Assembly: GCF_004010195.1 (NCBI RefSeq)
Contig: NC_057716.1
Span: 19,437,396 to 19,501,395, forward strand
DNA length: 64,000 nucleotides
Direction of reading: 5' to 3'
Source of the DNA: Chiloscyllium plagiosum
Lineage: Eukaryota
Part shown: positions 13,468-58,274 of the stretch, piece by piece
How the letters are laid out: each line of letters begins with the position of its first letter
Position numbering within the stretch: the stretch's first letter is position 1
Translations under genes and position numbers: made by a program
The notes under the pieces: model-generated
What the model was told of the DNA's origin: nothing
The model's input: the letters and a program-made list of their open reading frames with translations, nothing else
The model's database searches: none

Positions 13468-13900
13468 GAATCAATTTGTTTCTATTGTAACAGACTGTGA
13501 ATACATTTGTTTCTGTACTGTATCAGACAGTGAGTCACTTGTTTCTGTACTGGTTCACAGCCTGTTACACTGTTACAGTAAAGGCTAAATTGTATCAATT
13601 TATTTCTGTACTATATCAGACAGTGAATCATTTGTGTGTATCGTAACAGGCTGTGAATTAATATATTTCTGTATTATAACAGGCTAGGAATACATTTGTT
13701 TCTATAGTGTAACAGACAGTGAATCGATATGTTTCTGCATTGTAACAGGTTGTAAATTTGTTTCTGTACTGAAACAGACAGCAAACCATTTACTTCTGTA
13801 ACAGGCTGTAAATCAACTTGCTTCTGTACTGTAACAGAGTGAATTAATTTCTGTACTGAAAATGAATTAAGTTTATTCTACTATAACTGACTGCGAATTG
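13468..13900. repeat. Degenerate minisatellite, ~30-33 bp unit
   Basis: Recurring TTTGTTTCTGTACTGTAACAGACAGTGAAT-like units, about a dozen copies. Confidence 0.85.
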
Positions 13901-21840: not shown

Positions 21841-22106
21841 GAATTATGATTCCTCTTTAAATGGTCACAGGGCAGTTTTCTTTACTTACGTATTTTTGTT
21901 ACTCCCACCTTTGATCATTTATTTAAGGCTAATTTTGCTCAGTTGCTTGACAAGATTAGACAAGACCTTCAAAGATGGGAGGCCTTTCCGATCTCTTGGT
22001 TAGGTCGAATAGCCCTTATCAAAATGCATGTCCTTCCTCATCTGTTATATCCCATTGGAATGCTGCCTCTGATGTTTCCCAGGCAAAGGTTGTGGAGACT
22101 CACTGG

Positions 22107-22387
22107 TTGTTGTGGTTCTGTTCGCCGAGCTGCAAGTTTCTGTTGCATTCGGCATTCGTGTAGGAACCGGAGTTGTTCGTATGTGGCGCTTAGTCGGTTA
22201 GCGCAGGATTCCCATTTCCTGGCTTGTCTCAGCGTTTCTCGTCCGTAAGTGTTCAAAGTTTGTGCGAAGATTTGTAGCTCGGGTGCTCGTTGTTGTGGTT
22301 CTGTTCGCCGAGCAAAAACTTCCATTTCAGCGAACAGAACCACAACAACGAGCACCCGAGCTACAAATCTTCGCACAAACTTTGAAC
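22107..22387. mobile_element. Penelope-like element terminal-repeat remnant nested in L1
   Basis: Same termini as the 54883-56118 element. Minus frame 'YGRETLRQARKWESCANRLSATYEQLRFLHECR' resembles a PLE ORF N-terminus. Flanked by duplicated ACTCACTGGTTG. Confidence 0.8.
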
Positions 22388-24399
22388 TCACTGGTTGGTT
22401 TAGTTATTTTATTTGGCATCACAGGCAGCCCTTCATTAAGCTTGCCAACTTGCAGTTACCCCCAAGGGTTGTGGGGAGTAGACTTTTCAGATATTAAGAG
22501 ATACCAGCTAAGTCCCCTTCGTCCTTTGTGAGCGACTGGGCTTATGAGGACCCGAGATCAATATAGTTGGATATTGAGGCTTCCCAGGAAAAGTGTCCCC
22601 TTACTAGGCTGTTGTTTATGGATAAGATGGGGACAGTTACGGAATATTGTCAGAATCCAACCAGCATTAATACGGTCAAAGCAGAGAGAGCAATGTGACA
22701 GAGCAAGGGCAGTTTATCTGAAACTTCCTTTCTTACCCCTATAGTTTAATGCCAGAATTTTGGCCAGGGATAATGGACCCTGGATTCAACCTGTGGGCAA
22801 CTAGGGGAGTGCCCTGTTTGGGAGATCTATTTAAGGGGGGGATGTCACAATGTTCCTTGACCAAATGAGCCGCACTTATGGATTGCCCAGCGCAGATCTT
22901 TATCAGTACTTTCAGGTTGGGAACTTCTCCAAAAAACGACTACGCTTTTGACCAACGAACAACATTGAGCGACTGTGTGAGGTCTGGGAGCAAGAGTGGG
23001 AGTGGAGATTCCCTCAGAGACATGGAGGACATTTGAGAAAATGCAAGAAAGGTCTCGAAGTGCAACAGAATACACACCATGCTGTTGAAGGTTCTTCATT
23101 GGGTTCATTTGGCCCCAGATCGTCTTGCAAAATTCAAAAAGGGAGCATCGCCAATGTGCCCCAAGTACAAAAAACGCATTGGTACCCTCACTCATTGTTT
23201 GCAGTCATGCCACAAGCTTTGTAGGTACTGGAGCACTGTGGCAGGAGTAATAGAGAGGGCCCTGGGGACTGAAGGTAAGGTAGACTCAGTTTCTCTGGTC
23301 TTGGGCCTGCCGAATTTATTTTCCTTAGACGCACGTGGGAAAAAGCTATTTAACATTCTCTCTTACAGTGCGAGGAAGACCATTTTGATGAGCTGGGTGT
23401 CTGAGAACCCTCCAGGCCTGTTGGAGTTGCACAAGTTAATTATGGAATACATCCCTTTGGATTTCCTCACAAACATGAGGCACCACAAAACGGAACTTTT
23501 TTTTAAATAAGATATGGCAGCCCTCTTTGAATTATCTTGAAGCACATTTGTCTGCCATTTTAATTAGGGCCTTTGTTTAACCATGATGATTAGGTTTAGT
23601 GAGCCTTGTACCCTGGGAAGAAGAGTCCCAAATAAATATGGGTGTAATAATTAATGCTGCTGAAGGTTGGGAGCTTTGGTATGGTTGCACTGAGTGGTGT
23701 TATTTATTTATGTATAGATTTGTTGAGAGTGTAGTTATGATTTTTTTTGTACAGTAGGGTAGTAGCTTATTGTAATGGTTATAATTTTAAATTGTTTTAT
23801 TTTTGTAATTATATAACTTTGTAAAGAAAACAATTTCTCAATATAAATATTTTTTTAAAAAGTCACAACTTACAACAATTGAAGGGGAAAAGTGAACTGA
23901 CTATCTTCAGGTGTCAGCTGCTTTACAGCACAACAGAAACACAGCTCCTTCCTTTCCAGAGGTCCAACTGCTCCAGCTACCTGAGAGCCAAACACCAAGT
24001 TGTCAGCAGGCCTGAGGTCTTTACTATCGCTAACTGAACATTAGACTACAAACCAATCAGCTACTTGTTGTTGCCCAAATCTTCATTCACACAGTGCCGG
24101 GGACCAGCTCACCTATAACGAGGTATCCCCTTGCTGCTTAAACCGACAACTGTGTTAACAATAATTGTTGTGTAACTTGTTTTTAAAAAAGAAATCTGAT
24201 AACAATCCTTCGCTTCTAAACCAGTCCCTTTCCTATTTCAGTTCACAATAAAACACGTGGAACAATCAGAAAGACAAGATGATCTTTACAGAGGGTTGGA
24301 ATGCCACAAGCAGGGTCCACTTGCTGCAGCTGAGCTAAACAGGAGTCAAGGAACAAAAATAGAAAGAAAGATCTGGGGTGGTGAAGCAAGCTATTGGGA

Positions 24400-34720: not shown

Positions 34721-35133
34721 ATAGAAAGTGAGGACTGCAGATGCTGGAATACAGGATCGAGAGTGTGGTGTTGGAAAAGCACAGCAGGTCAGGCAGCATC
34801 CAAGGAGCAGGGGAATCGACATTTCAGGCATGGTTTCTGATGAAGGACTTATGCCCGAAATGTTGATTCTCCTGCTCCTCGGATGCTTCCTGAGCTGTTT
34901 GCTTTTCCAGCACCACAATCTCAATTTTAAACCCATGGAGAAACTCAGCAGGTCTGGCAGTATCTGTGGAGAGAGAAGGCAGGGTTAATGTTTCCAATTC
35001 CTTGGCCCTTCTTGAGACTGGACCCGAAATGTTAATTCTGCTTTCTCTGTCTGCAGATGCTGCCAGACCTGCTGAGTATCTCCAGCAATTTCTGATTTTG
35101 TTTCAATTTTCCAAAATCTGCATTTTTTAAAAC
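34721..35133. mobile_element. Two tandem palindromic (fold-back) non-autonomous elements, likely PLE-derived, inside a minus-strand CR1 tail
   Basis: 34721-34925 has TGGAAAAGCACAGCAGGTCAGGCAGCATC.. / ..GATGCTTCCTGAGCTGTTTGCTTTTCCA arms; 34937-35133 has CTCAGCAGGTCTGGCAGTATCTG / CAGATGCTGCCAGACCTGCTGAG arms. Confidence 0.75.
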
Positions 35134-38409: not shown

Positions 38410-38610
38410 AAAATTGCTGGAAGAACTCAGCAGGTCTGGCAGGATCTGTGCTGAGAAAGCAGAATTAATGTTTCAGGTCCAGCGACCCTTCTTCAGAACT
38501 CTTCAGTTAACAACACTTTGTCTCCACAGATGCTGCCAGATCTGCAGTGATTTTTGAGCAAATTCTGATTTGGTTTCTGATTTCCAGCATCTGCAGTTCT
38601 TTGGGTTTTT
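38410..38610. mobile_element. Palindromic PLE-derived element with minus-strand hammerhead-like core
   Basis: Arms CTCAGCAGGTCTGGCAGGATCTGTG / CACAGATGCTGCCAGATCTGCAG; the minus strand at 38467-38499 reads CTGAAGA-AGGGTC-GCTG-GACCT-GAAAC. Confidence 0.65.
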
Positions 38611-39871: not shown

Positions 39872-40699
39872 ACAATATACTTCCTAATCAGGATCAAGAG
39901 TGGCTTGGAGGGGAACTTGCAACACGTGGTGTTCCCATGTATTTGCTGCCCTTATCCATCGATATGGAAGAGGCCATGGATTTCAAAGGAGCGTTGGTGA
40001 GTTGCTGACGTGCATCTTGTCAATCATACACACTGTTGCTACTGTGCATCCATGGAGGAACTGAATATCTGTGGATGTGGTGCCAGTCGAGTGAGCTGCT
40101 TTGTCCTGGATGGTCTCAAATTTTTCGAGTTTTGTTGGAGCTGGATGTGGGGAACATCCCATCACCATTCAGAGTTGTTTCTTGACAGTGGTGCACAGGC
40201 TTTGGGGACTGAGGTGAATTACCTTCTGCAGCATGGCGGAATGGGTACTGCAGATGCTTGGAGATTAGAGAGGTGCTGGAAAAGCACAGCAGGTCAGGCA
40301 GCGTCCGAGGATCGACGTTTCGGGCAGAAGCCCTTCACCAGGAAAGGGCTGCAGCATTCCTACCCTCCGACCTGCATTTTGTAGGCACGATATTAATGTG
40401 GTCAATCCAGTTCATTCCCTTTGAAGAGAAAATGAGGTCTGCAGATGCTGGAGATCAGAGATGGAAATGTGTTGCTGGAGAAGCGCAGCAGGTCAGGCAG
40501 CATCTAGGGAACCCTACCCTCCGACCTGCATTTTGTAGGCACGATATTAATGTGGTCAATCCAGTTCATTCCCTTTGTCAATCCCACTCCCTGTCATGAT
40601 GAGAATTCCCTGACCCATTCCCACTTATACTGATGATCCCCATTCTTTATCCACCTCCTCATTCCTATTCCTCTCACCTATTCCCGTTCACCATTCGTG

Positions 40700-40949: not shown

Positions 40950-41062
40950 ATGGGGACGGGCTCGGAGCTGCCGGACACCCGGAGCTGGAAGGTCGAGGGG
41001 ACCCCGCTGGAACTGGTGCAGGAGAGGTTGCGGAGACGGGGCCTGAGCGACCCGTGGGCCCG
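40950..41062 (+). CDS. NDUFB3: NDUFB3 coding exon 1 (complex I B12 subunit)
   Basis: Kozak caccATGG; [37 protein letters not shown](R), cf. ELPDYRQWKIEGTPL..GLRDPWGR; donor CG|GTGGGT. Confidence 0.95.
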
Positions 41063-42114
41063 GTGGGTGAAGTGGGGCTCGGGGCTGTGGGAGTTGAAAG
41101 CCCATAAATGGTGCTGGGAGCTTAAAAATGACATGACACCAGGTTATAGTCCCACAGGTTTATTTGAAAGTACTATATTTGATGCTGTAATGGTAGTGCA
41201 GTGGTAGCCGTGACTGGTAATTGTGAATTGTTGTTAAAATTCCCGCTGGTTCACCCAGGTCCCCTTCAGGAGGAGAAACCTTCCATCCCTGACCCCTCAC
41301 CCCTGATGTTCCAGCTGTGCTTCAGCTGCCCTCCGAAATGGCTGGAGACAAAAACAATCTGCAGATGCTGGAATCCAAGGCAGACAAGCAGGAGGTTGGT
41401 AGAACACGGTGAGCCAGGCAGCATCAGGAGTTGGAGAAGCCAATGTGTAGCCCTTCTTTACAAACAGATTCACAGGCACCATGTCCTGCTGGTCTTGCCT
41501 CCCGTGAGAGTAATCTGCCCCCCCCCCCCCCCGACTTGGCTCGCTGGGGCAGCACTTTCACCCCTGAATCAGAGGAAAGAAAAAAAGTCCTTGCAACTCC
41601 CTATTTCCAATCTCAATGTCCACTGCACTGTCTTCCAGATGTGGTGTTAGGCTGAAGCCTTATTTGTCTCATTGTAGAAATATAAAATACTGTATCCCCC
41701 AAGGCACTATTTTAAAAGAGAGCAATCCACCCTGTCTTGGCCAATGTTTAGCCCTCAACAACCATTGAGAAAAATAACAGATTCTGATGGTTTAATTGCT
41801 GTAGTGGGGTTTTTTGTTGTGTATAATCTGGCAGTCATGTGTACGTTACAACAGGAGCTACAATTCAAATTTATTTCATTGGCTGTGAAGTGTTTTGGCA
41901 CTGCCTGAACTGCTCTGTGCCAGTGTTTATATTTTACCCAAGTGTCCTCCCACACAATGTTATTCTCACCCCATTATCCGTCTTTCCATTCCTTTCTTGT
42001 GCTTATCTAGCTTCTCCTTAAATACCTCATCCTTTCCCTTTGAAACTGGGTTCCACATTCTTACTGCTCTCTTGGTAAAGATGTTACTCATTAATTCTCT
42101 TTTGGATTGATTAG

Positions 42115-42690
42115 TGGGGTGGCTCCAGTCAGAGGTCCTCTGCTCGCCAGTTCCTTTTCATTTTTTTTTCTCATCTTTATAGCTTTTCTCACCAGCACTG
42201 CTCCCCCTCACTCCCTGCAAACTTTTCACTGCCCCGCCTTGCCCTACCTGGAGAGTGGAGTCAAGGGAGATGGGTCATGGCCAGAACCCGGGAGGGAGCA
42301 GAGCACATAGGCTGAGACAATTGGCAGCAGAGTGAGCACATGTCAAGTCCTGCGGCAGAGCAAGTGGGCTGATTCTGGAGGGATGGCAGAGCAGGCTGTA
42401 GCTAGAGTGGTAGCAGAATGGGCACGGCCCAGGCCAGTCCTGGAAGGAGGCTGGCACGTGGAGGCACTGTGGCCGCTTGTTCTGGGGCCAGCTGGCACAG
42501 ATTCATGTTGGAGAGGAACTGGAGCTTAAGTACTTTATGGTCACTTTCTATTATCATTCTGGACTTTTATAGCTCTGTTCCCATGCTCACCTTTTTTTTA
42601 AACTCTGTAACAATACTTAAAGTATATGTACTTTGTACCTAAGATGATGTTGAGAGGCAACTTCACAAACTTTTCACTGCAGTCATTCTA
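42115..42690 (+). mobile_element. Non-coding LINE-tailed element (same family as 56635-57320)
   Basis: GC-rich body, then GTACCTAAGATG..AAACTTTTCACTG tail shared with the minus copy at 56.6 kb. Confidence 0.5.
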
Positions 42691-44519
42691 TTCTGTTCTT
42701 CTCTTCATATTTCTTAGTTTGGGTCTTCTCCACAGCTAATCAATTAAAATCTTAAAAACATCTTACTTTGATTTTTACCAGTGGTTATTACCCCCTTTTT
42801 GGTAGAATCTTGCAAATCTCTTTTTCAGACTCTCCAGTGCGTCTGTGCCCTTATAACGTGGAGAGCAGAAATCTCTACAGTGGCTTTGTGTAATCTGGTT
42901 GAGGTTCCAATGAAGTTTAGCATACATTCTCTGCTTTTCAATCTTTTTTGGATTCTTTCACAGGATTTGGATATTGTGGGCGAGGCCAGCATTTATTATC
43001 CCTCTTTAATTGCTCTGGCAGAAGGTGGTAGAGAATATCCTTGCTGCAATACTTGGGATGTAGATGCATTCTTAATGCTGTAAGGACTGGAGGTTTGGGA
43101 TTTTGACCCAGTGACAGTGAAGGAATGGCAATATATTGCAAGTCAGAATGATGAGTGACTTGCTGATGGTGGTGTTCTTGTGTGTCTGCTGCTCTTGTCC
43201 CTTTAGATGGTAGAGGTTGTGGATTTGAAAAATGTCAAGAGAATCTTGGTGAGTTGCTGCAGTGCTGCTGCTGTGCTTCGGGAGTGGAGAGTATAAATAG
43301 ATATTGTGGGTGGTGCCAACTGGGGTTCTTTTATTCTGTCAGGTGTTCATGTTTCTAGATTATGATTGACTATAATAATATTGAACTTTTATTTGGAAAT
43401 TTTTCAGTCAGTCAGGGTGCTGATTACTGAGCTGCTGTGAGCAGTTGTTGATGTTTCTATTCCTGGCAGCATGTAATGACCAGCTCTGGTTGCTGATTCA
43501 CTGCTGGCTTGAGAGGACTGAGAATTTCATTTTGCCTCTTGCCAGGCAAGCTGGTGAATTTCTAACCCATGAATGAATTCACCAGCTCATTCTGGTGTCT
43601 CACCCAGGTCAGTCTTGACCAACCATTATCAGTTAGTCTTGACCTCACTCAAAATTTAAGCTTTAAACATGGCATTGCTGCAACAGTCATCAGCACATGG
43701 AACTCCAAATGATTTTCCCTCTTCGAGCTGAGGCCGTTTGGCCAGTTTTTCATTCCTAATACCAGCTAACCCAGCAGAGCCCATGGAGAGCTTTGGCTTT
43801 GATACTCAGGAGTTCCGTGGGCACAGATGTGGATTTATTATTGTCTGTCCCCCCGTTGGAAATGAACAGAGCAACTTTGTACATGTGTGAATTATGAAAG
43901 CTTGGAAGTTGTTTTTTTTTTAAAATAATTTCATGTTCTCGTTGCTGGCAAGGTCAACTTTTGTTGCTCATCCCTAATTTCTCTTGAACTGAGGAGCTTG
44001 CTAGGCCATTTTAGAGGACAGTGAATTACAATGCCATTGGACTGGAACCAGACCAGAGAAGCACTGCAGATTTACTTCCCTAAAGGGCAATGATGAACCA
44101 AATGGGCTTTTAGTGACTGTCAGTGATAGTTGTTACAATTAGTAGTCCAGTGACATTAGACTACACCTCTCTCTCTCTCACTCTCTCACCCACTCACCCA
44201 CTCAATTTTTACTACTTTATGGCAGGATGTGGAAGTCTTACAATCTAAAATCAGAAAAGACAGAAGCCATCCTAGCTAAATCATTAAATGTTTGAGATAA
44301 AATCTCTCCAGTAGTGGTGACTCCTAGAACAGATTCCTGTCAGATTAGTGTTATTGGCAGAGGCAGGTCTCTGCAAGTCCAGCTATTTGATAATCACTTT
44401 GCTAATCATTCCCTGGGTGTTAGAACGTGTGACCATAACAAAGTGGCTTATGTTGCTGCTGTCCCTGACTGCTCACAAACCACTTTGGCCCTGAAGTTAG
44501 AAAGCAAGATTGAGTCACC

Positions 44520-44680
44520 AGTTGACAACCCGAAGCGGCAGATTCAAACCACTATAAATGCCGGAGGAAACATCACAGAAGCGCTTCACAGGAGGCTCCC
44601 AAGCACTGAGGATGTCACCTAGACAGGGGACGAAACGTCTGCAACACAAGTTCCCAGCTTGGCGAACAGAACCACAACAA
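44520..44680 (+). mobile_element. Penelope-like terminal repeat (solo)
   Basis: Closely matches 55920-56080: ACCACTATAAA..GGAGGAAACATC..AAGCGCTTC..GGCGAACAGAACCACAACAA. Confidence 0.85.
44603..44642 (+). ncRNA. Minimal type-I hammerhead ribozyme motif in a PLE terminal repeat
   Basis: GCA-CUGAGGA-U-GUCACCU(AGAC)AGGGGAC-GAAAC-GUC^-UGC: conserved core, stem II hairpin, palindromic ACGU stem III, GUC cleavage triplet. Confidence 0.75.
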
Positions 44681-45864
44681 CTTTGACAAGTGATCTAATT
44701 TTAGTTCAAAATTTTAAAAGGATGTTCTTAAGTTCTCTGCCTGAAGGCAGATTTGACCCACAAAGTCACCATCTCTGCCATGAGTGGAGGAAGGAGGCAG
44801 GTCCTGAATTCACCCCCATCAGAACAGGAATCAAACTCCATTTCACTAGCACAACCATCCGGCTTTCTGAGCAAAGTGGAGTCAGTGCAGCTGTGGCAAG
44901 ATGCACATTTACATGTTGTAGGCTGGAGCTAATGACAACCATGGTTGAGGCTCCAATTTCTTTCCATCCCATGACCAACTAGGTTCACCTCCCAGTCTTA
45001 CTACCTACCATTGGCATGTGTTGGAAGGATTTGTGGGTTGGTACTCATCGTAACTGGCCACGTTATCGGCTCCCCTTTCTTGACAATCTAATCCTGGGGT
45101 GGGAATACAAACTGGTAGCTTCTGGTTCAGGCAGGGACAAGACTGCTGGGATTCCATGGAGTTGACCAGGCAAAACTGTTCCTTGTGGAAATTGAAATGA
45201 GCGCTCTACTTCATTTAGGAGTGAAACCAGTAAGTATATTATCATAATCTCAAAGTGTGTAAACTTGGAGCTCATTCCTCAAAAAAAAATTAATTGAAAT
45301 TGGAGGAGAAAGATTGCTTTTGTGTGTAAAATGATCAAAAGAAAAAAGTTTGTGGAGTTAAGTACAGATTAGGCATGTTCTGATTGAGACTGTTGAACCA
45401 TTCAGTCAGTAGAATCGCTGCTTCCTGCTCCATATATTTTATATAGATCTGTAAACATGATAGCCACCAAGCTGTTCTATTCTATCTCTAGTCTCTAACT
45501 CCATTCCTCTCCAATCTGACTGTGTCTGAACCAGACCATTTGCAATCTTTCTTTCCCCATCCTCTCCTCTCCAAATGCAGAGCCCTCATGATTGTCCCTC
45601 TCCCTCCTGCAACTTCCAGTGAGGTGGATTGTTGCCAGTTCAGACAAATCTGTCATTTGCTTTTTTTATTGACATTCCTTGCCTTGTACTGGTTCAAAAC
45701 CCTGCAATCCCACTCGAATGCCATGTGAGAAATTTGCCTTCAGTTAATACGAGAGACCTGACCATCAGTTGTTCAAAGTACACATGACTGCTTTGTGAAC
45801 TATGCCAGAATTAACAGTTCACATCCAATCTTAAGACCATTTTCTTTGTTGTCTTTTCTAACAG

Positions 45865-46021
45865 TAATGAAGCCTGGCGGTTCAACGGAGGCTTTCGTAA
45901 ACCTATCACCTTCACCAATGTCTTTTCTCGAGGCTTCAAATGGGGATTTGCAGCATTTGTTGTGGCTTTGGGTGTTGAGTATGCACTATTTTCTCCCAAG
46001 AAAAACGGAGGACATCACTAA
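45865..46021 (+). CDS. NDUFB3: NDUFB3 coding exon 2 (to stop; total 89 aa)
   Basis: tctaacAG|T AAT GAA..; [63 protein letters not shown] is diagnostic. Confidence 0.97.
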
Positions 46022-46126
46022 TGAATGAAGACTGAAGACTTTGAAATTATGTACAACTCTCTATCTCTCCTTTCCAGTCAGTGAGCTGTAACCAATGTAT
46101 GAAACAAGAAGCAAATGTCTTTACAG

Positions 46127-46132
46127 AATAAA
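46127..46132 (+). terminator. NDUFB3: Probable NDUFB3 polyadenylation signal
   Basis: AATAAA ~105 nt after the stop codon, followed by T-rich sequence. Confidence 0.7.
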
Positions 46133-47169
46133 ATAATTAATTGAATCAGCACTTATGCTCAGTCATGTTCCTTTTGAAGTCTTTTCACCATTGATATCAG
46201 CTCCTATTATCTGTTTTCACCTGGTGACTGCCCTATACTTGTTTCGTGTGTTCTTTTTGTTGATTGAGAAGCATGTGACGTTTTCTCTGGTGCGCACACT
46301 TACGAGTTATCTTTGGCGCGTTCCTATTTCTCATTTGCCTGCTGCTTCTTGGAGACATCATCAAAAAATAATTCAGGATCCATAATAGGAAGTCTTATCA
46401 CTTTTTTCTTGATTTTTTCACTGTGCCGTCAGGCTGCTTGTTTAATGTCCAGTATTGGATAAGGTACAAGCACCTCCAGTGAAACATTGGGAAGCCTTGT
46501 GGCCATTGCCTCAAGGTGTCTTTGAATCACAAAATATCAAGTAATTACAAAGGCCAATGAAAATATTGGCTTTTATTGCAATGAGGATGGAGTATAACAG
46601 TGGGAAAGTTTTGCCCCAGCTGTACATGTATAGTTTTGGTCTCATTAAGGAATAATACTTGCATAGCAGACTGTTCAAAGAATAATTAGTTTGGGGTTGC
46701 CTTATGAGAAAGGTTGATTGGGTTGGGCCTGTACTGTTTGGAGCTGAGAAGAATGAAAAAGTGATATTTTTGAAACATAAGATTCTGAGAGGGTAGATGC
46801 TGCAAGGATATTTGTGGAGGGAATCTATAACTGGGGGCATGGATTAAAAATAAAGGGTCTCCCATTTAGGAGACAGATGAGGAATTTATTTTCTTGGAGG
46901 CTGGGTTGTCTTCTCTCCAGAGAGTATCATTCAGGACTCTGGGTTATTAGTCCAGTAACACAATAAGTTTGCTACTGTGCCTGAAACAAAAGCAGTAAAA
47001 TTCTGAGCTGGCAGCATCTGTATGAGAAAGCAGAGTTAAAGTTTTGATTTTGACCACTCTTCAGAACCAATCTCTTTTTTTTCAGATCTCCAGCATCTTT
47101 GCATTATGTTACAGTACCTGCTGAGCTCTCCATGTTATGTGGAGGTGAGGGGCATGACTTGGTATTTGA

Positions 47170-47680
47170 AGAGTCTATGTTGGAGGGGATGAGGTGTAAA
47201 GGGGCAGGAAGGATGAGGATGTGAAGGTTGGGAATATATAAAGGGATGGGGGGTATATGAGGGATGTGGATATAGGGGTGGTGGGGGTATATGAGGGATG
47301 TGGATACAGGAGGTTTGGAGATATATAAGGGTGAGGGTATATGAAAGATGGGGAGGGAAGAGAACATATGATGGATGGATGATGGTATATAAGGGAAGGG
47401 GATGTGGGTACAGGAGGATTGGGATTATGTGAGATGAGAATGCTGATACAGGAGGGTTGGGAATATAGAAGGGATAAAGGTATATGAGGGAAGAGGATGT
47501 GGATACAGAAGGGTTGGGGATATATAAAGGGATTGGGGTATATGAGGGAAGGGGATGTGGATAGAGGAGGATTGGAGTTATGAGAGATGGGAATGCAGAT
47601 ACAGGAGGGTTGGGGAAATAGGGATGAGTGAAGGGGATGTGGATACAGGAGGGTTGGGAGTATATAAAGGATGGAGATGT
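47170..47680. repeat. G-rich purine minisatellite upstream of the CFLAR promoter
   Basis: Recurring GGGATGTGGATACAGGAGGGTTGGGAATATATAAAGGG-like units with strong G/C strand asymmetry. Confidence 0.8.
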
Positions 47681-47699
47681 GCTATACACTGCATGTGGA

Positions 47700-48130
47700 C
47701 GGGAATTCTGTGTGGGAAGACAGGGAGTAAGTGGGCCATGGTGTTTAGGAAATACCCCAATGAAGACCGTTCCGAGGGAGAGGAGATGTTTTTACGATGT
47801 TCCTGCGCTCCGTTCAGACAGTCCGCCCGCCCAGAGCCTGTGGTCAGAGAGCGGCGGGGGGGAGCCGGCTCCCGGCCCCGGCCCCTGCCCTGATCATAAC
47901 GCGATGCTTTCACTTTCACTTTCTCCAGGGGACGAGAACAGGTGATCGGGGCAGGTCGGTGTGTGAGGCCCGGAATCCGGCCCGCGATTAACCACTACCG
48001 CAGGAGGAGGGCCTGAGCCTGGGCCTGGGCCCGGGGTTGGAACTGGAACAGAGGCCGGGGACTGGGCCTGGGCCCAGGGCTGGAGGAAAGCCTGGGGTTG
48101 GGCTGGAGCAGAGATCAGGGCCTGGAGCTG
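47700..48130 (+). promoter_or_regulatory. CFLAR: CpG island: probable CFLAR promoter and non-coding exon 1 (donor after 47941)
   Basis: CpG-rich; kB-like GGAAATACCCC (47748), GC boxes, IRF-type GCTTTCACTTTCACTTTC (47906-47923), donor ACAG|GTGATC. Confidence 0.65.
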
Positions 48131-48865
48131 GAGGAGAGGCTGGATGTTTGGAAACCCCACCCCCACACCAGGAGATGGTATTTGTAGGAGATGACGAAGT
48201 TAAATTGATCAAGGTGTTGATGGTTAGAACTTGTGGCAGAGCACAGAGGATGACACCATAAAGTTAGAGTGTCAGGGAAAGGAGGTGGATGGTGATACAG
48301 CACAGAATAGAGGGGGTGAAAGGCCTCCTCCATACCTGGCAACACTGGAATCAGATCAGTAGCAATGAAAGCAACGAGGAGAGTATAGTTTAAGATTACA
48401 CTGACATCCCAAAGGGACAAATGGCCTAGGATGCGAGACAGTTGGTCTCGGAGACATGTCAGCCTTTAGACCTGTTGATTTTCTTTGTGCTGTTTCTCTA
48501 GTGACATTGTTTATTTTCAGTTTCTCCCTCTTGCCCCTTGATTTTCTACTATTGTTGGGATGCTGTCTTCAGCTGCTTCATCAGCGAATTTCCCTCCATT
48601 GTAAGATCAAAAGTGGGAATGTCTGCCCATGATTGCATAATGTTTAGCACCATTCAAGACTTCTGAAATACTGAAGCAGTACACGATCAAATGCAGCACA
48701 AACTAGGCAAGATTCTGGTTTTGGGATGAAAAGTTGCAAATAACATTTGAAATAGATAAGTGCCAGGCAATGACCATTTCCAGCGAGAGAATCTAACAGT
48801 TGTCCCTTGACATTGACACCCCCACTACCAAGTTCCTGTGTGTTACCATTCCAGAAATTGAAGAA

Positions 48866-49823
48866 TCAGTGCTGGGTCCACCGCTTTTTGTCATTTATAT
48901 AAATGATTTGGATGTGGATATAGTAGGTTTGCAGATGACACCAAAATTAGAGGTGTAGTGGACAACAAAGAAGGTTACCTCAGAGTGCAATGGAATTTTG
49001 ATTAGATAGGCCAATGGGCTGAGAAGTGGCAGATGGAATTTAAGTTAGATAAATTCATTCTGGAAAGGCAAATCAGGGCAGGACTTATACATTTAAGGGT
49101 AAATTCCTGGGGAGTGTTGCTGAACAAAGACATCTTGAGGTAGAGGTTCATAGTTTCTTGAAACTGGAGTCGCAGGTAGATACGATAGTGAAGAAACCGT
49201 TTGGTATGCTTGTCTTTATTGGTCAGAGCATTGAGTATAGGAGTTAGGAGATCATATTGTGCCTGTGCAGAACATTGGTTAGACCACTTTTAGAATATTG
49301 TGTACAGTTCTGGTCTACTTCCTATCGGAAGGATGTTGTGAAACTTGAAAGGGTTCAGAAAAGATTTACAAGGATGGTGCAGGGTTGGAGGGTTTGAGTA
49401 TAGGGCGAGGCTGAATAGGCTGGGGCTGTTTTACCTGGGGGTCAGAGGTTGAGCGGTAACCTTATAGACGTTTATAAAGTCATGAGGGGCATGGATAGGG
49501 CAAATAGACAAGGTCTTTTCTCAGGGGTGGGGGAGTCCAGAACTGGAGGCCAAAAGTTTAGAGCAATAGGGGAAAGATATAAAAGAGACCTAAAGGGCAA
49601 CTTTTTAATGCAGAGGGTGGTGCATGTATGGAATGAGTTGCCAGAGGAAGTGATGGAGGCTAGTACAATAACAACATTTAAAAGGTATCTAGATGGGCAT
49701 ACGAATAGGAAGGGTTTAGAGGGATGTGGGCCAAGTGCTGGCAAATGGAACTAGATTAAATTAGGATATCTGGTCGGCATGGACTGAAGAGTCTGTTTCC
49801 ATGCCATACATTTCTATGACTCT
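48866..49823 (+). mobile_element. CR1 3' fragment nested in another LINE (~48560-50435)
   Basis: 'FADDTKI', 'GNLIDVYKVMRGMDR..QRVVHVWNELPEEVMEA..GPSAGKWN'; CTATGACT tail. The flanks continue a different LINE ending AAATGGTGGCCCAGCTAGCAACAC. Confidence 0.85.
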
Positions 49824-50574
49824 GTATAAGTACTGTGGCTACAAGAGCAGGTCAGAGGCTAGGAATCTTACAGTGAGCTACTTACCTCCTGATTCTCAGA
49901 AGCCGATCCACCATCTACAAGGCATAAGTTAGAAACATGATGCAATATTCCCCACTTGTCTGGACGACTGAAGCTCCAACTCAAGCTTGACCCCATCTAG
50001 GACAAGCAGCCTGCTTAATTGGCACCACGTTCACAAAAATCCATTCCATTCACCAGCAACGCTCAGTAGCAGTAGTGTGCACCATCTACAAGATGTACTG
50101 CAGAAATCTACCAAGACTCCTTGGACAACACTTGAAAAACCTACAGCCACTACCATCTAGAAGGAGAAGTGCAGCAGATATATGGGAACACATCTTTGCA
50201 TGTTCCCCTCCAGGCCATTCATCATCCTGATTTGGAAATATATTGCCATTCCTTTATTGTCGTGGGGTCACAGCCCTTGAATTTCTTCCGTTATGACATG
50301 GATCAAATCCTACAGGACAAGGACTGCAGGGGTTCAGGAAGGCGGCTCACCACCAAATTCTCAAGGCAACTTGGAATGAGCTGTAAATGGTGGCCCAGCT
50401 AGCAACACCTACACCTTGTGAATTAATTAAAAAAACTCTTTGATTGTCTTCTACTATGAAGACATATAGTTTACTTGTTATGAAGGAGGAGGCTTATGGC
50501 AATGGATTTAGATGAGAAATGTAGGAAGAAGCTTGAGTGGAGCCATAAACATTGGCATCACTGGTTCGACCAAA

Positions 50575-51230
50575 CAGTAGAGTCACAGCTAGATAGGATA
50601 ATGAAGAAGGTGTTTGGTATGCTTTCTTTTATTGGTCAGAGTATTGAGTACAGAAGTTGGGAGGTCATGTTGCGGCTGTACAGGACATTGGTTAGGCCAC
50701 TTAGAGTATTGCATGCAATTCTGGTCTTCCTATCAGAAAGATGTTGTGAAACTTGAAAGGGTTCAGAAAAGATTTGCAAGGATGTTGCCAGGGTTGGAGG
50801 GTTTGAGCAATAGAAAGAGGCTAAATAGGTTGGGGCTGTTTTCCCTTGGAATGTTGGAGGTTGAGGGGTGATCTTATAGAGGTTTACAAAATTATGAGGG
50901 GCATGGATAGGACAAATAGACAAAGTGTTTTCTCTGGAGTGGGCGAGTCCAGAACTAGAGGGGTATAGGTTTAGGGTGAGAGGGGAAAGATATAAAAGAG
51001 ACCTAAGGGGCAACTTTTTCTCACAGAGGGTGGTACGTGTATGGAATGAGCTGCCAGAGGAAGTGGTGGAGGCTGGTACAATTGCAACATTTAAAAGGCA
51101 TTTGGATGGGTATAAGAATAAGAAGGGTTTGGAGGGTGCTGGCAGGTGGGACTAGATGGGTTGGGATATCTGGTCAGCATGGACAGTTTGGACCGAAGGA
51201 TCTGTTTCCATGTACATCTCTATGACTCTA
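50575..51230 (+). mobile_element. CR1 3' fragment
   Basis: 'IEYRSWEVMLRLYRTLVRP', 'LERVQKRFARMLPGL', 'RVWNELPEEVVEAG'. Confidence 0.9.
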
Positions 51231-53005
51231 ATTGGCCTATTGGTGCCATGTATCTGTGCCATGTATCTGTCTACTGTTAATTATCTTGGGAGGCTGGGGT
51301 TCACGCGATGAGGATGGTAAGCATATGTTGCATAGAATGGGTTTAAGAAGACAGCAGAGAAATGGGAAATTTCAATTGCCAGAGTCTAAAATGTGTATGT
51401 CCCAATAGTGCAGAGACTACAAGGTGAGCAGTGAGGTTGTGAACACCCTGGACCTTCCACACCATAGGCTTTCCCCACACTGCTCCCAGCAGTATAAACT
51501 GGTTGAGTAAAATCTCTTTGTTCTCCAGGCAATGGTTTCCCTTTGAACTGAGTATCAGACCCAAGATAGGTGGACCTACAATTTGTAGCAGATTCAAATG
51601 TGCAATGTCAGAGAAGACGCTGTCACAGAAGTAGTGCGTCATTGAGAGTCCTTGAGCAGAGTGCAGTTAAACGTCAATACCAACAAGAAGTAGGGCAGCT
51701 GTAGGTTTGTCATAGTTCTGAGGAATGAGCTGAGATCAATTACTGAGTTATTGCTGAGAAAGCTGTTAGTGAGAGGAGGAGGAGCTGGGATAGATTTAAA
51801 ATTGTAACAGAAAGGATAACCACACATGAATATTGATGGGGATAAAACAAACCATCACCAAAATGGATAAATGAGGAAAATCTAACTGTTTAAAAGTTAA
51901 GAACAAAACAGGAATGCTGTTATAGTGATAAGGATATTACATTGAAATACAAATTGCGATGAATAGTAGGCCATTTTGCCTCATGGCCTCCTCCAGTTTT
52001 CAGTAAAGTCTTGGTTGATCAGATTATGACTTCAACCCCAGTTTCATGCCCCGTTGATAACCTTAGATTCTGGACTAACAAGGGAGTCACTCTACCTCTG
52101 CATTAAAAGTATTCAATAACTCTGTCTTTACTGTTCTGTAGGAATGTTCTCACTAGGGAGAGACGAGCTTTGGGAGAGGGGTAAGCATTTACTGAATCAG
52201 GGCAGAGGAAATTTGGGAGGAACGGAGATGTGGAGAAGTGTAGGGAGTTAGCACATATTAGATTAGATTGAAGCAATACAAAATAGAGGGAAGGGAGAAA
52301 GATCGAACTGAACAATAGAACATGGTTAAGTATTAATTAAATTTTAACTGTCTAATTTAGGACATGGTAAAGATTTCTCCACAGTGTCTGCATCAAGCAC
52401 TCCCAGGGCAAAAGGTGTGGGAGTTAGGTGCACGGTTAAGCTTGCTCTGTAATGTCCATTAAATAGTCTAACCTAGAATCAAAAATCTTAATGAAGAGTA
52501 TGGAAACATTTATGTATCCCCTTGCTAATGTTCTCCACCTTTGTTGCTCTCACTGGCTGGAGTCTGTGGCCATCATTCAACCTGCTGTACGTCACTCCAA
52601 ATGACCATTATTCCTGACTGTGCTTCAGCAGTGTACGTCGGTCTGAAATGTGAGTGAAGCTTTGATAAGCTAGATGGCTGTGGGCTGTTGATATTGAACT
52701 GCAACCATGACTGAGAGGAGATGAGCAAGAACAAGTTTAGAATGGAACCTACGACATTTCTCTTAAATCTAGAGTTGGTTGTACAACACTTGCACAACAT
52801 TTTGGTGTGTTCTAAACCAAAAAGCATTAGTGATTAATTCATATTTTTCTCCTTGTTTAGATCTTTGTCAGAGTTTCGTTTTGTGCTGGAAAAGAGAAGT
52901 CAATGGCGTCACCAGACATGAGGTCACAGTACAATGTTATAGGCTGGGGAAATCGCAGTTTTCTGTAAGGAATTCTTGGGGCTGCTTCCTTCAATATTCA
53001 ACAAT

Positions 53006-53307
53006 ATGTTCAAGCAAAATACTATGGATATCAGACGACTGGCATTGCAAATAGCTGATAAACTGTCGAAGGATGAAAGTGCCACCTTAGTGTTTTTGTG
53101 CCTTGATATTCTGAAAGATTATTTAAATATTGGGGAAGTGAAAGAGCTGTTTGAGATACTGTCCAAACGGAACCTGCTGAGGATTGAGCTCCTAAGTGAA
53201 CTGCTTTATCGAATAAAGAGGTTTGATGTTCTGAAAGGATTGAAAGTTGACGTGAAGTGTTTGGAGAGACATTTGAACAGTGGTAAAGGATACGTATCTT
53301 CATACAG
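53006..53307 (+). CDS. CFLAR: CFLAR/c-FLIP first coding exon, DED1 (exon starts at 52861; alternative ATG at 53024)
   Basis: MFKQNTMDIRRLALQIADKLSKDESATLVFLCLD..ELLYRIKRFDVLK..YVSSY(R), matching c-FLIP ELLYRVRRFDLLK; acceptor tgtttAG at 52860, donor AG|GTaaa; position next to NDUFB3 fits conserved synteny. Confidence 0.92.
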
Positions 53308-54920
53308 GTAAAATCAATCTCTGTGTAATGGGATGGGAGTATGAATTGCCTGTGATGGAAGTTTGGCTTCTCCAGTTCTTGCTCCCCAGATTTAGCAGAC
53401 AACATTTGGTAACAACTGAATGAAGCAATTTTTTGGCTTTAATCCATGACAGGGTGTAATAAATAACACCTCATAAATCAGCATTGTAGCAAATCTTATT
53501 CCCCAGGCTATGGTACTAAAATGACCTTTTATGTTTTGGCATCTCAATGTCACCTTGTGTCAGCGGTGGGGCCTAAAATGTTATTAATGTTTTTGTTTGA
53601 TGGAGCATGGGACCAATTTGAGGGTCAGTCATTTCGTGGGAGCAGAAATTGGCCATTCAGCCCTTTGAACTTTTTCTACCATTCATTTAAACCATGGCTG
53701 ATCTGTGTCTTAATACTTTCGACCTGCCTTAGTTCCTTATTCTTTATTTCTCTTGGTGAAGTTGATTCCCAGCTTTAAAAGCCATTTTGGAAAATGCATT
53801 CCAGGTTTCTGCTACCCTTCATGTCAAGACGTGCTTCCCCTGAACACCCTGGCTCTAGTTTTAACGTTTTTCCCCATTGCTCTGGATTTTCCCACCAAAG
53901 GAAATATCTTCTGTTTCTGTCTGTACTGTATTAACTCACAGAAATGTGGAAACTCAAGGCAGCAGTAGGCCATTCAGTCCTTCAATCCTGCATCTGCCGT
54001 TCAGTATACTCATGGATGCTTCTCTATCTGAATGCAATTTTCCTGCTTTCTCCTCATATGCCTCGATGTCTTTAAAATCTTTTCAAAATTCTCTTGAATA
54101 TATTCAGTGACTTGGCCTCCGCAACTCTGTGTGGTAGTGAATTCCACAGGTTCACCACTGTTTGCACCCTCATCTCAGTCTTAAATGATCTGTCCTGAGA
54201 CTTAGTCCCCCAGTACTAGGTTCCCCATAATGGGAAATCATCTTCCCTGCATCTCGTCTATCTAGTGTTTTAGAATTTTATCCAAATTTCACGTTTCAAT
54301 TATCTAAGTTTCAATCAAATCCCATTTCTCCCTTTAAAAAGTTTAGTGATTCCAGGCCCAGTAAATCCAATCTCTCCATATGGGACAGACCTACCATCCC
54401 TTATATCAGATGGGTGAACCTCTGCTGCACTTTCTCTATGACAAGTATATCTTTCCGGAGGTAGGAAGATCAAAACTGCATGCAGTACTCCCGGGTGTGG
54501 TCTCACTAAGGCCCTGCTATAAGACACCTGTACTTCTGAACTTAACTCTGCTTGCAGTGTAGGCTAATCTACCATTTGCCTTTGTATTTGCTTGCTGTAC
54601 CTGTCTGTTTACTTTCATTGACTGGTATACGAGGAGAATCAGATCCCTTTGTATATCCACATTTCCCAACATATCATTTAAATAATATTCTTCCTTTCTA
54701 CTTTACACACTGAAATGTATAACTTCACATTTAGCTACATTATACTGCAAATTTATAGCTATATATTGTGAATAGTTGGAACTTAAGTACTGATCCTTGA
54801 AATATCCTACTAGTCACTGCCTGTCACTCAGAAAAATAACCATTTATTCCCACTATCTGTTTCCCGTCTGTCAACCAATTTCTTGTTGTGGTTCTGTTCG
54901 CCGAGCTGGAAGTCTTTGTT

Positions 54921-54960
54921 GCAAACGTTTCGTCCCCTGGCTAGGCGACATCATCAGTGC
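54921..54960 (-). ncRNA. Minimal hammerhead ribozyme motif (inverted terminal repeat)
   Basis: Minus: GCA-CUGAUGA-U-GUCGCCU(AGCC)AGGGGAC-GAAAC-GUU^-UGC. Confidence 0.7.
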
Positions 54961-55085
54961 TTGGGAGCCTCCTGCGAAGCGCTTCTTTGATGTTTCCTCC
55001 GGTGTTTATAGTGGTCTCACAAACCAACAGCCATGCTCAGACAACAACTCACCAGAACGAAGGAACCGATACCCAACATGAGCAA

Positions 55086-55856
55086 NNNNNNNNNNNNNNN
55101 NNNNNNNNNNNNNNNNNNNNNNNNNNNNNNNNNNNNNNNNNNNNNNNNNNNNNNNNNNNNNNNNNNNNNNNNNNNNNNNNNNNNNNNNNNNNNNNNNNNN
55201 NNNNNNNNNNNNNNNNNNNNNNNNNNNNNNNNNNNNNNNNNNNNNNNNNNNNNNNNNNNNNNNNNNNNNNNNNNNNNNNNNNNNNNNNNNNNNNNNNNNN
55301 NNNNNNNNNNNNNNNNNNNNNNNNNNNNNNNNNNNNNNNNNNNNNNNNNNNNNNNNNNNNNNNNNNNNNNNNNNNNNNNNNNNNNNNNNNNNNNNNNNNN
55401 NNNNNNNNNNNNNNNNNNNNNNNNNNNNNNNNNNNNNNNNNNNNNNNNNNNNNNNNNNNNNNNNNNNNNNNNNNNNNNNNNNNNNNNNNNNNNNNNNNNN
55501 NNNNNNNNNNNNNNNNNNNNNNNNNNNNNNNNNNNNNNNNNNNNNNNNNNNNNNNNNNNNNNNNNNNNNNNNNNNNNNNNNNNNNNNNNNNNNNNNNNNN
55601 NNNNNNNNNNNNNNNNNNNNNNNNNNNNNNNNNNNNNNNNNNNNNNNNNNNNNNNNNNNNNNNNNNNNNNNNNNNNNNNNNNNNNNNNNNNNNNNNNNNN
55701 NNNNNNNNNNNNNNNNNNNNNNNNNNNNNNNNNNNNNNNNNNNNNNNNNNNNNNNNNNNNNNNNNNNNNNNNNNNNNNNNNNNNNNNNNNNNNNNNNNNN
55801 NNNNNNNNNNNNNNNNNNNNNNNNNNNNNNNNNNNNNNNNNNNNNNNNNNNNNNNN
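55086..55856. other. Assembly gap (771 N)
   Basis: Run of n. Confidence 1.
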
Positions 55857-56001
55857 AACTCCATCAACAAACACATCGACCTGGACCCAATATACCAACC
55901 ACTATAGCGGACAGCTGAAACTGACAACCAGAAGCGGCAGGGACAGACCACTATAAACACTGGAGGAAACATCAAAGAAGCGCTTCGCAGGAGGCTCTCA
56001 A

Positions 56002-56041
56002 GCACTGATGATGTCACCTAGCCAGGGGACGAAACGTTTGC
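56002..56041 (+). ncRNA. Minimal hammerhead ribozyme motif (3' terminal repeat)
   Basis: GCA-CUGAUGA-U-GUCACCU(AGCC)AGGGGAC-GAAAC-GUU^-UGC. Confidence 0.72.
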
Positions 56042-56634
56042 AACAAAAACTTCCAGCTCGGCGAACAGAACCACAACAACGAGCACCCGAGCTACAAATC
56101 TTCGCCCAAACTTTGAACCAATTTCTTGATCCTTGTCAATGTGTTACACCCTATCCCATCTGCTTTGATTTTGCCCACTAACCTCCTGAAAATCTAAATA
56201 CACTGGTTTTGATTCTCTTCAATTAATGGGATGTTATTTGTGCCATCTTTTGTGAAGACAGAAACAAAGAATGTGTTTAATTCTTCTGCCATTTCTTTGC
56301 TTTCCATTATCATTTCTCTGTCCTCTGACTGTAAGGAACCTACATCGTTCATTACTAATCTTTTTCTCTTCACATATTTATAGACGTTTTGCAGTCAATT
56401 TCTATGTTTCCTAAAATTTTAATCAGAAACTCTATTATCCCCTTCTTAAATAAACTACTCATCCTCTTTTACTTTAACTAAAATACTCCCAGTCCTCAAG
56501 TTTGTTGCTTTTTCTCACAGTTTTTGTGTCTCCTCAATGGATTTCATGCTATCCCTCATTTCTTTCATAAGCATTGTCTTTCTTCTATTTTTGAATGAAC
56601 GATTGTTGTAATTCAAAATTTTCTAATATTAGGA

Positions 56635-57320
56635 TTAAGTTTTATTGTCATTGTACTCAAGTACAGGAATACAGTGAAAAGTTTACAATGTCACCATTCA
56701 CGGCACCATCGTAGGTACCTAGGTACAAAATCTTAGGTAAAAAGTAGAAATGTAAAGATGTCAGTTAAAAGTTTAATATTGTAGTTCTTGTCAGTATAAG
56801 GTAGCCAATAAATAAAGTTAAAAGTCCTAAATTGCACTCTGGTTTCAGCCATGGGCCTGCAGTTGCTCCATGCTGGGCTTTCCCTACGAGGGCTCACTGT
56901 CTCAATCACCATGCTGCAATCTCTCTGTGCTGCAGTCTCGATGCTGTACACCATCCTCTCTCTCCCACATTTGGCTCAATCTCTCAATCCCTGTGCCTCC
57001 GCGCTGCCATCTCGATGCTGACTGCCAGGCTGCCAGAGTCCCGCTCTGGTGCTGCTCTGGGCCCCCAGCCATGTCTGCAACACCACCACCTGACAGAGTT
57101 CTGTCCGGGCACGCCAACCCACCTCGTGGCAGACCGCCAAAGTCCCCGCTCTGGGCCCCCCATCGCTACCACTGCCTCCATGACTGACCTCCCTCCAGAA
57201 GGTAAGTAGAGGAAGAAAAAATCTAAAAAAACTTACGAGAAAAACAAACAAGAAAATAAGAAAGAAAAGGAATTGAATAGATGAGCAGCAGCTCAGGAGC
57301 CCTACTGCACAGCCATCTTG
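56635..57320 (-). mobile_element. Non-autonomous LINE-tailed element
   Basis: Minus strand starts CAAGATGGCTG..GGGCTCCTGAGC, has a GC-rich body and ends AAACTTTTCACTGTA..GAGTACAATGACAATAAAA; homologous to 42115-42690. Confidence 0.55.
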
Positions 57321-58168
57321 GATTCATGCACATGTTCTTTACACATGAACCATTTCTTATAAATTGCCAATCCCTTTAGTAAAGTTCCTCAATCCACCCC
57401 TGCCCAATCTTGCCTGATACCCTCGTCATTCCCTTTAAGTATTTTCAGGAATCTTGTTTTGGATTTGACTACTTTATTCTCTATCTTAATGGAGTGATCA
57501 TAACATGATAATCAAATGTTATCATGTTATGATCGCTCTTCCGTAAAGGACCCCACACAACAAGATTGTTAATTAATTCTTTGTCACTGCATCGTACCTG
57601 GTCTGGAATAGCCTGTTCTCTGATTGGTTCATCAATGTTTTATCTAAAAATTCCATCATGTACACACTCCAGGAAACCCTCCTCCATGGTGCCATTGTGA
57701 CGCTTGTTTGTCCAATGTATATTTAATTAAAATCACCCATGATTATAGTTTACTGTTATTACATGCACCTCTGATTTCCTGTTTAAAGCCTTCCCTTGCA
57801 TCTCTATCAGTGTTTGTTAGCTAAACCCGTTAAATTCCTTTAATCATCTGAATCATTTTAGCTTGCTTATTCCTTAATCCTCAATACTTGAGGGAGTATC
57901 AGGCTAGTCAGTTCCAACCTGTACTTGGAATATGACCCTTTCTGCAATGGTATCAGTCTGGTGAATGTGTGAGGCATCTCTTCTAAGGCCATTATGTACA
58001 GTGCTTGGAACTGAACACAGAACTCTGACTAAGATTATGTACATCTGTAGCCTCTATGACGTGAACACCCACATTCCATTAATTTTGGAATTATTGCTTG
58101 GATTTAAGTCAATGCAATGCCTACACATTTAGGATAACTAACTGGCTGTCTTCACCTTTATAACACAG

Positions 58169-58274
58169 GCAGTTGTTGACGGACATCAGCGAAAATCTTT
58201 GTCAAGAAGATTTGCAATCTATTTTGTTTTTATTACGTTGCCAAGTACCAAAAGGCCACCAGGAAGCAATGAAG
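58169..58274 (+). CDS. CFLAR: CFLAR coding exon 2 (106 nt), start of DED2
   Basis: acacAG|G CAG...ATGAAG|GTaatt; QLLTDISENLCQEDLQSILFLLRCQVPKGHQEAMK; phase 2->0. Confidence 0.92.

Follow-up and report, generated by a model that had tools for sequence, protein, structure and literature searches.

Two genes of the shark Chiloscyllium plagiosum, NDUFB3 and CFLAR, carry minimal hammerhead ribozyme motifs in their introns, which raises the question of whether the pre-mRNAs of these genes are cut from within. Both genes lie in a stretch of 64,000 nucleotides of contig NC_057716.1 (NCBI RefSeq assembly GCF_004010195.1, positions 19,437,396 to 19,501,395 of the forward strand); the whole stretch is called the window below, and positions are counted from its first letter. 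We conclude with high confidence that the motifs are located in two truncated insertions of a Penelope-like element (PLE), likely as idle passengers of the NDUFB3 and CFLAR introns.

Hammerhead motifs and their host introns

The first-pass annotation of the window had described three near-intact minimal hammerheads in Penelope terminal repeats. All three, with each of their parts, were found at the same coordinates and on the same strands (Table 1); the motifs are real, but the number of insertions behind them is two and not three. The catalytic core (CUGAnGA, GAAA, and UH) is present in all three copies, as is an unpaired U between positions 9 and 10.1. Stem II has seven positions, six paired and one with a purine–purine mismatch, and stem I consists of three contiguous base pairs. 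Positions A15.1-C-G-U16.1 form an ACGU palindrome without loop 3 in every copy, and the palindrome is 6 nt long in the copies with a GUU triplet. Beyond an internal loop, stem I could be lengthened by a distal 5-bp helix (55990-55994 with 56050-56054), which was predicted for the two GUU copies, at 54.9 and 56.0 kb, but not for the 44.6 kb copy. Letters resembling this helix also occur in diverged relatives, in which covariation at these letters was not seen.

A stem-aware scan of the window returned six motifs, compared with 0–1 in each of 10 shuffled sequences. The bare pattern CTGANGA..GAAA matched nine times, which is not above chance (6.4 ± 2.6 in shuffles). The hammerhead search suggested in the first-pass annotation was successful with the stem-aware scan, whereas the Rfam scan of the window did not detect the hammerheads and gave only two unrelated chance hits, an outcome that neither supports nor refutes them.

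The host introns and strands were as previously claimed. On the forward strand, the NDUFB3 coding sequence is interrupted from about 41061 until 45864, and this joint is spliced; the last exon has a PF08122 match, and the poly(A) of the transcript was located at 46148-46151 in the RNA run. The insertion in CFLAR is flanked by exons for the death effector domains (DED), at approximately 53006-53308, 58169-58274, and from approximately 60243, all on the forward strand. The best PDB match of this gene was cFLIP (E 1.5e-13, compared with 1e-4 for caspase-8). The borders of the CFLAR intron were set from splice-site letters and reading frame, not from RNA reads.

Origin of the motifs in Penelope terminal repeats

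Judging from the sequence, the motifs are pieces of the pseudo-long terminal repeats (pLTRs) of a very abundant PLE family. The 33-nt hammerhead pattern of the family had 12,054 exact matches in the genome, one per 295 kb, and its reversed control had 0. A search with 191 nt from the end of the 56.0 kb copy gave 1,799 genome candidates, the best 40 of which matched at 97–100%. A near-full-length copy, L246, has two direct repeats at a distance of 2,381 nt, each with the hammerhead, and between them a frameshifted open reading frame (ORF); the window copies align to its pLTRs at 85–97%. The Penelope terminal repeat identity given by the first-pass annotation was confirmed, since both direct repeats carry the motif and match the window copies.

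Read by eye, the ORF of L246 contains, one after the other, a DKG, a YVDD, and a GIY-YIG-type motif; we take the latter two to be marks of the PLE reverse transcriptase (RT) and endonuclease (EN). The DKG motif of PLEs is named in PMC8557442. A PDB search for the RT or GIY-YIG domain of the element gave no match, and RVT_1 matches in five flanking frames were left unused because their link to the element was not established and one of them reads as another LINE. By eye, this one frameshifted copy showed no Zn-finger linker joining RT and EN; the absence of such a linker separates Penelope/Poseidon from Neptune and Nematis.

The element ORF opens at an AUG made of A9, the extra U, and G10.1, so the extra U of the hammerhead is explained as the U of the element's start codon. 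The ORF starts at the hammerhead AUG in four more copies besides the rearranged ones, and the predicted cut is located 25 nt past the AUG.

Structure of the insertions

The copy in the NDUFB3 intron is a stub of 159 nt, 85–86% identical to both L246 pLTRs. It ends at the tail-less 3' end and has a tentative 7-bp target duplication, which overlaps element letters. The copies at 54.9 and 56.0 kb are the two arms of one insertion in CFLAR: the arms have four differences over 135 nt, and only the forward-strand arm has a tail. The spacing of the readable internal ends in L246 disagrees with the length of the N stretch in this insertion. The same layout was found elsewhere in the family, with an inverted partner within 1.5 kb at 18/29 sister loci and exactly one tailed arm in all 31 divergent pairs. 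At least seven flank letters, representing the target duplication, were common to the arms in 23/31 pairs, compared with 36/930 mismatched controls, and the target duplications of the shark family were mostly 11–13 bp. Because an inverted tail-less end is the standard PLE layout, the antisense arm in CFLAR is a by-product of insertion. By symmetry, whichever way a gene runs through an insertion of this kind, the antisense arm is the first to be transcribed. The window loci consist of the solo stub and the inverted pair, with no head-to-tail units.

In the third insertion of the family in the window (22098-22397), a piece that starts exactly at the nucleotide after the predicted cut (cut+1) is joined to the ORF beyond the tail and is followed by an inversion. 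A family fragment that begins at the cut site was also seen in copy L093, where the duplicated host sequence on its flanks is unusually long.

Table 1. Coordinates of the hammerhead motifs, insertions, and host introns in the window.
Feature	Position	Strand	Remarks
Minimal type-I hammerhead, GUC	44603..44642	+	Predicted cut after 44639; element ORF AUG 44612-44614
Minimal hammerhead, GUU	54921..54960	-	Predicted cut at 54924; antisense to CFLAR
Minimal hammerhead, GUU	56002..56041	+	Predicted cut after 56038; AUG 56011-56013
Solo 5'-truncated pLTR fragment, no tail, GUC subfamily	44523..44681	+	In NDUFB3 intron
Left 13-bp target-site duplication copy	54873..54885	.	Overlaps element end by 2-3 nt
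Inverted tail-less pLTR arm, CFLAR insertion	54883..55017	-	97% complementary to 55945-56079
Internal part, CFLAR insertion	55018..55944	+	Readable ends match sister loci and L246; mostly N
Direct pLTR arm with ~36-nt tail	55945..56116	+	Encodes first 35 codons of element ORF
Right 13-bp target-site duplication copy	56116..56128	.	
NDUFB3 intron holding the solo copy	41062..45863	+	GT..AG joint 41061-45864, supported by 88 reads from a single RNA run
CFLAR intron holding the inverted insertion	53309..58168	+	Between DED1 exon and first DED2 exon
Third insertion of the same family, rearranged	22098..22397	.	No hammerhead core; 12-bp target duplication
Second-class hammerhead-like motif	34837-34864	+	Stem or core change
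Second-class hammerhead-like motif	40314-40341	-	Stem or core change
Second-class hammerhead-like motif	38467-38496	-	Stem or core change

Selection between and within families

Among diverged relatives from the same genome, aligned without gaps, the outer pair of stem I was U-A in 8, C-G in 6, and G-C in 5 of 24 distinct rows. The covariation score was 0.229, compared with 0.136 after shuffling, and 79% of the cells were paired, compared with 32–38% when the alignment was slid; these values reflect few events (three families), with two of ten pairs changing on both sides and the core letters fixed by the search patterns. The G10.1-C11.1 pair was present in 24/24 rows, with both letters fixed by the search patterns for most of them; in unselected partner copies, G10.1 was found in 64/65 and C11.1 in 59/65. 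Between families, the hammerhead appears to be a selected RNA structure, and this result fits selection in active elements. Within the family, nearly all of the matches listed (100 of 340 with a changed 10.2) left 11.2 unchanged, and a single compensated 10.2/11.2 copy was seen by eye among them. Copies of the family differed from one another at N7, at the mismatched position of stem II, in one loop letter, and at position 17, and none of these changes was compensated. The stem covariation put forward in the first-pass annotation as a test was found between families but not within the family.

The older related Penelope-like families (L232-L245, L190, L194, L199, and L208) have the same core and different stems. 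One of them, L194, contains two identical hammerhead copies in tandem, 312 nt apart.

The core does not decay more slowly or faster than its surroundings. Non-CpG changes in 65 partner copies, which were not chosen for their core, numbered 7/650 (1.1%) in the core and 26/2,015 (1.3%) in the flanks (p 0.84; two subfamily-diagnostic flank columns were dropped). The arms differ from each other by approximately 4–6%, and the cores are near-intact because the insertions are young.

These data bear on the idea that the window copies were co-opted as regulators of NDUFB3 and CFLAR, with the antisense arm as a switch, to which we give almost no credence. Two sense copies with intact cores do lie in spliced introns, the antisense arm is able to pair with the sense arm, and domesticated intronic hammerheads are known in amniotes (PMC6155905). 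However, an intact core is the usual state (56/65 partner copies), one exact match is expected in every 295 kb, and the inverted arm is a standard insertion product; in addition, the insertions are young and lack stem III, and a duplex of -269 kcal/mol between the arms is no switch.

Predicted fate of the host RNA

The monomer, which has no loop, is unable to form stem III, and pairing through ACGU alone was computed at approximately -1.7 kcal/mol. For the 44.6 kb copy, an alternative fold was predicted to be better by 8 kcal/mol. In CFLAR, the duplex between the sense and antisense arms (135 nt) was computed at -269 kcal/mol. The stem-aware scan revealed no second same-strand hammerhead in the NDUFB3 transcript or in either host intron.

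On the model of published relatives, two copies in the element's own RNA would pair through the ACGU palindrome to form stem III, and slow cleavage would follow, probably helped by the element's protein. A lone intronic copy would be unable to close stem III, with no same-strand partner offered by either intron, and in CFLAR, pairing with the antisense arm, which is transcribed earlier, would additionally sequester the sense copy. Since stem III and a partner are lacking and the CFLAR copy would be held in a duplex, cleavage of the host pre-mRNA is expected to be rare or absent. The earlier proposal that the sense copies cut or modulate NDUFB3 or CFLAR pre-mRNA was not borne out, given the missing same-strand partner, the neutral-looking decay, and the weak activity of published relatives. 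As for the suggested masking of the sense copy by the antisense one, the arms can indeed pair, but the antisense arm is an ordinary inverted PLE end, and the pairing would be the same for either direction of the gene.

The CFLAR fold-back could also matter as long double-stranded RNA (a substrate for editing or small RNAs) and not as a ribozyme, which we regard as improbable, although less so than the other alternatives. The duplex of 135 bp is 97% complementary, with the arms 927 nt apart in one intron, and it resembles inverted Alu pairs. However, the sole A>G difference that was listed in this stretch of the family made up the same share of RNA (16/117 reads) as of DNA (16% of contig depth), and such an effect would be a side effect common to thousands of insertions.

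Insertion ends were also considered as fossils of cleavage, prompted by the 22.1 kb piece that starts at cut+1, and this idea was rejected because no enrichment was found. Genome-wide, 18 matches fitted a boundary at cut+1, at least five of which are deletions with the core still upstream. A set of 92 boundaries was drawn from 90 loci, covering the first 100 matches listed out of 316; in it, six insertion 5' ends were located at cut+1 (p 0.66 versus an even spread), and position +10 held 13.

Counter-evidence and possible cleavage in trans

Several observations weigh against the reading of the copies as idle passengers. Concerning the element itself, none of five L246 pieces gave an RT or other hit in Pfam, and the GIY-YIG Pfam match of copy L027 was sub-threshold (E 0.0096). 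Concerning the partner, none was found on the same strand in the portion of CFLAR that the window covers, past which the gene extends into sequence not searched. The neutrality test has low power owing to the youth of the copies and is silent on any single locus. Family RNA reads cross the cut site with a depth of 123 before and 115 after it and no pile-up of ends, which is a weak test: the RNA run was a poly(A) single-cell library, approximately 2% of it was read, and such a library captures 5'-OH or cyclic-phosphate ends poorly. Zero RNA depth was recorded on the unique intron sequence next to the NDUFB3 copy, and the copy itself was unseen as RNA. Boundaries from -2 to +1 were mildly raised among the insertion ends (23/92, p 0.07).

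The remaining points of this kind concern abundance, expression, and subfamilies. A second short-repeat class contains a hammerhead with a 4-bp stem II, an extra A, and GUC, with 70,490 exact matches in the genome. Family RNA is abundant and approximately 8:1 sense (mean depth 81 vs. 10.5), although A-rich priming could explain this; partners for cleavage in trans consequently exist in principle. Letters that break the core (44634 and 44636) were found in approximately 17% of family RNA reads, compared with less than 0.1% of DNA depth. Among 12,999 family matches, 8,390 had GUU and 4,609 had GUC (65% GUU), whereas GUC was found in 19/19 diverged relatives. GUU is a derived change, silent in the ORF, that extends the palindrome, and it is a slower cleavage triplet than GUC.

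These facts can be joined in the reading that sense intronic copies cut the host pre-mRNA at a low rate, by means of hammerhead RNA in trans or the element protein; this would burden the genome as a whole and serve no function, and active sense copies would be selected against. We think this very unlikely. The two repeat classes together supply at least 82,544 exact-core motifs with a common ACGU palindrome, the family RNA is expressed, the broken-core variant and the GUU triplet are overrepresented as described, and Xenopus retrozymes are reported to avoid introns (bioRxiv 10.64898/2026.07.22.740005). However, the ACGU duplex is worth little energy, the core decays no faster than its flanks, the RNA reads lack an end pile-up, and the broken-core RNA possibly comes from one highly expressed dead copy at a single locus. 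Nor were GUU copies found to be younger: the hypothesis of a younger GUU subfamily was not supported, since arm differences were 4.9 per 100 nt for GUU (8 pairs) and 5.8 for GUC (22 pairs, not picked by likeness to the window; p 1.0). In its widest form, this reading supposes that more than 80,000 palindrome-sharing hammerheads with intact cores exist, that element RNA or protein brings about the cleavage of sense copies in vivo, the NDUFB3 one among them, and that the fold-back ends and the spread of GUU reflect a genome-wide silencing pressure; we assign it an equally small probability. If intronic copies did cut in vivo, this would be a new genome-wide tax of a retrotransposon on host gene expression. 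With one exact-core motif per 43 kb, the genome is a good test bed for the role of PLE hammerheads.

Comparison with known systems

We retain the view of the copies as passengers, and the literature provides close parallels for them. The motif, its pLTR location, and the inverted ends are all already in print, and the finding contributes a further Penelope family, with a hammerhead as expected. Minimal hammerheads (min-HHRs) were described in the pLTRs of metazoan PLEs, inactive as monomers and with low cleavage as dimers (Cervera and De la Pena, 2014; PMC4209133). The shark motifs share with them the core, the unpaired nucleotide between 9 and 10.1, G10.1-C11.1, a long helix II (7 positions here, 7–8 bp in the class), the loopless palindromic 15.2-16.2, the place in the pLTR, the occurrence mostly as single copies, and opposite-strand pairs (100–700 bp apart in that paper). 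The first-pass annotation had assigned the motifs to the dimer-dependent minimal hammerheads of PLEs, and the palindrome without loop 3 and the pLTR location agree with this published kind. Helix I has 3 contiguous bp here, compared with 4–5 in the described class. The highest counts in PMC4209133 were approximately 4,000 (coelacanth) and 9,000 (Xenopus), compared with 12,054 and 70,490 here, although the methods differ. The text of that paper that was consulted names no cartilaginous fish. A literature search on Penelope ribozymes in sharks found no shark case, the word appearing only as the name of a shape; hammerhead retrozymes were found in one chondrichthyan genome (bioRxiv 10.64898/2026.07.22.740005).

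In the Anolis Poseidon element PAc, cleavage was reported only with the element protein and was dispensable for insertion in vitro; RNA-seq reads that stop at the cut site were absent (Frangieh et al., 2024; PMC11167929). As in PAc, the ORF of the shark element starts at the base of stem II, the cut follows the start codon closely (approximately 26 nt after it in PAc), and insertions have two end sites, which delimit a tail of 30–40 nt in A/C-rich sequence. In contrast, initiation sites in PAc are located near +111 to +118 of the ORF, whereas the ends here are near +70 and +106. The role of PLE hammerheads is described as open (PMC8557442; PMC11167929). The endonuclease-containing (EN+) rotifer element Pen2a_Av (PMC3846280; scheme in PMC8557442) has the same inverted 5'-truncated pLTR, single tail, and flanking target-site duplication, its pLTR likewise holds the first codons of the ORF, and it shows the same assembly trouble in the middle; its duplications are 8–10 bp in the rotifer examples and shorter than most of those in the shark.

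Two other systems are more distant. RECK-type domesticated hammerheads (PMC6155905) are also type-I motifs in a host intron, but they are canonical and conserved across species, whereas the shark copies lack helix III, are young, and carry no sign of selection once inserted. Non-LTR retrozymes likewise have PLE-related type-I hammerheads, but they are head-to-tail tandems of at least two units (bioRxiv 10.64898/2026.07.22.740005), in contrast to the solo stub and inverted pair found here.

Other repeats in the window

The list of motifs in the first-pass annotation was correct for the three described above but missed three further hammerhead-like motifs, which belong to other repeats (Table 1). 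Approximately 12 fragments of the second class are present in the window, at 6.9, 11.7, and 34.7-40.5 kb, and repeats of this class often occur as inverted pairs. Degenerate tandem arrays were also observed at 13474-13847 and 47220-47680, with units of approximately 31–33 nt and 17 nt.

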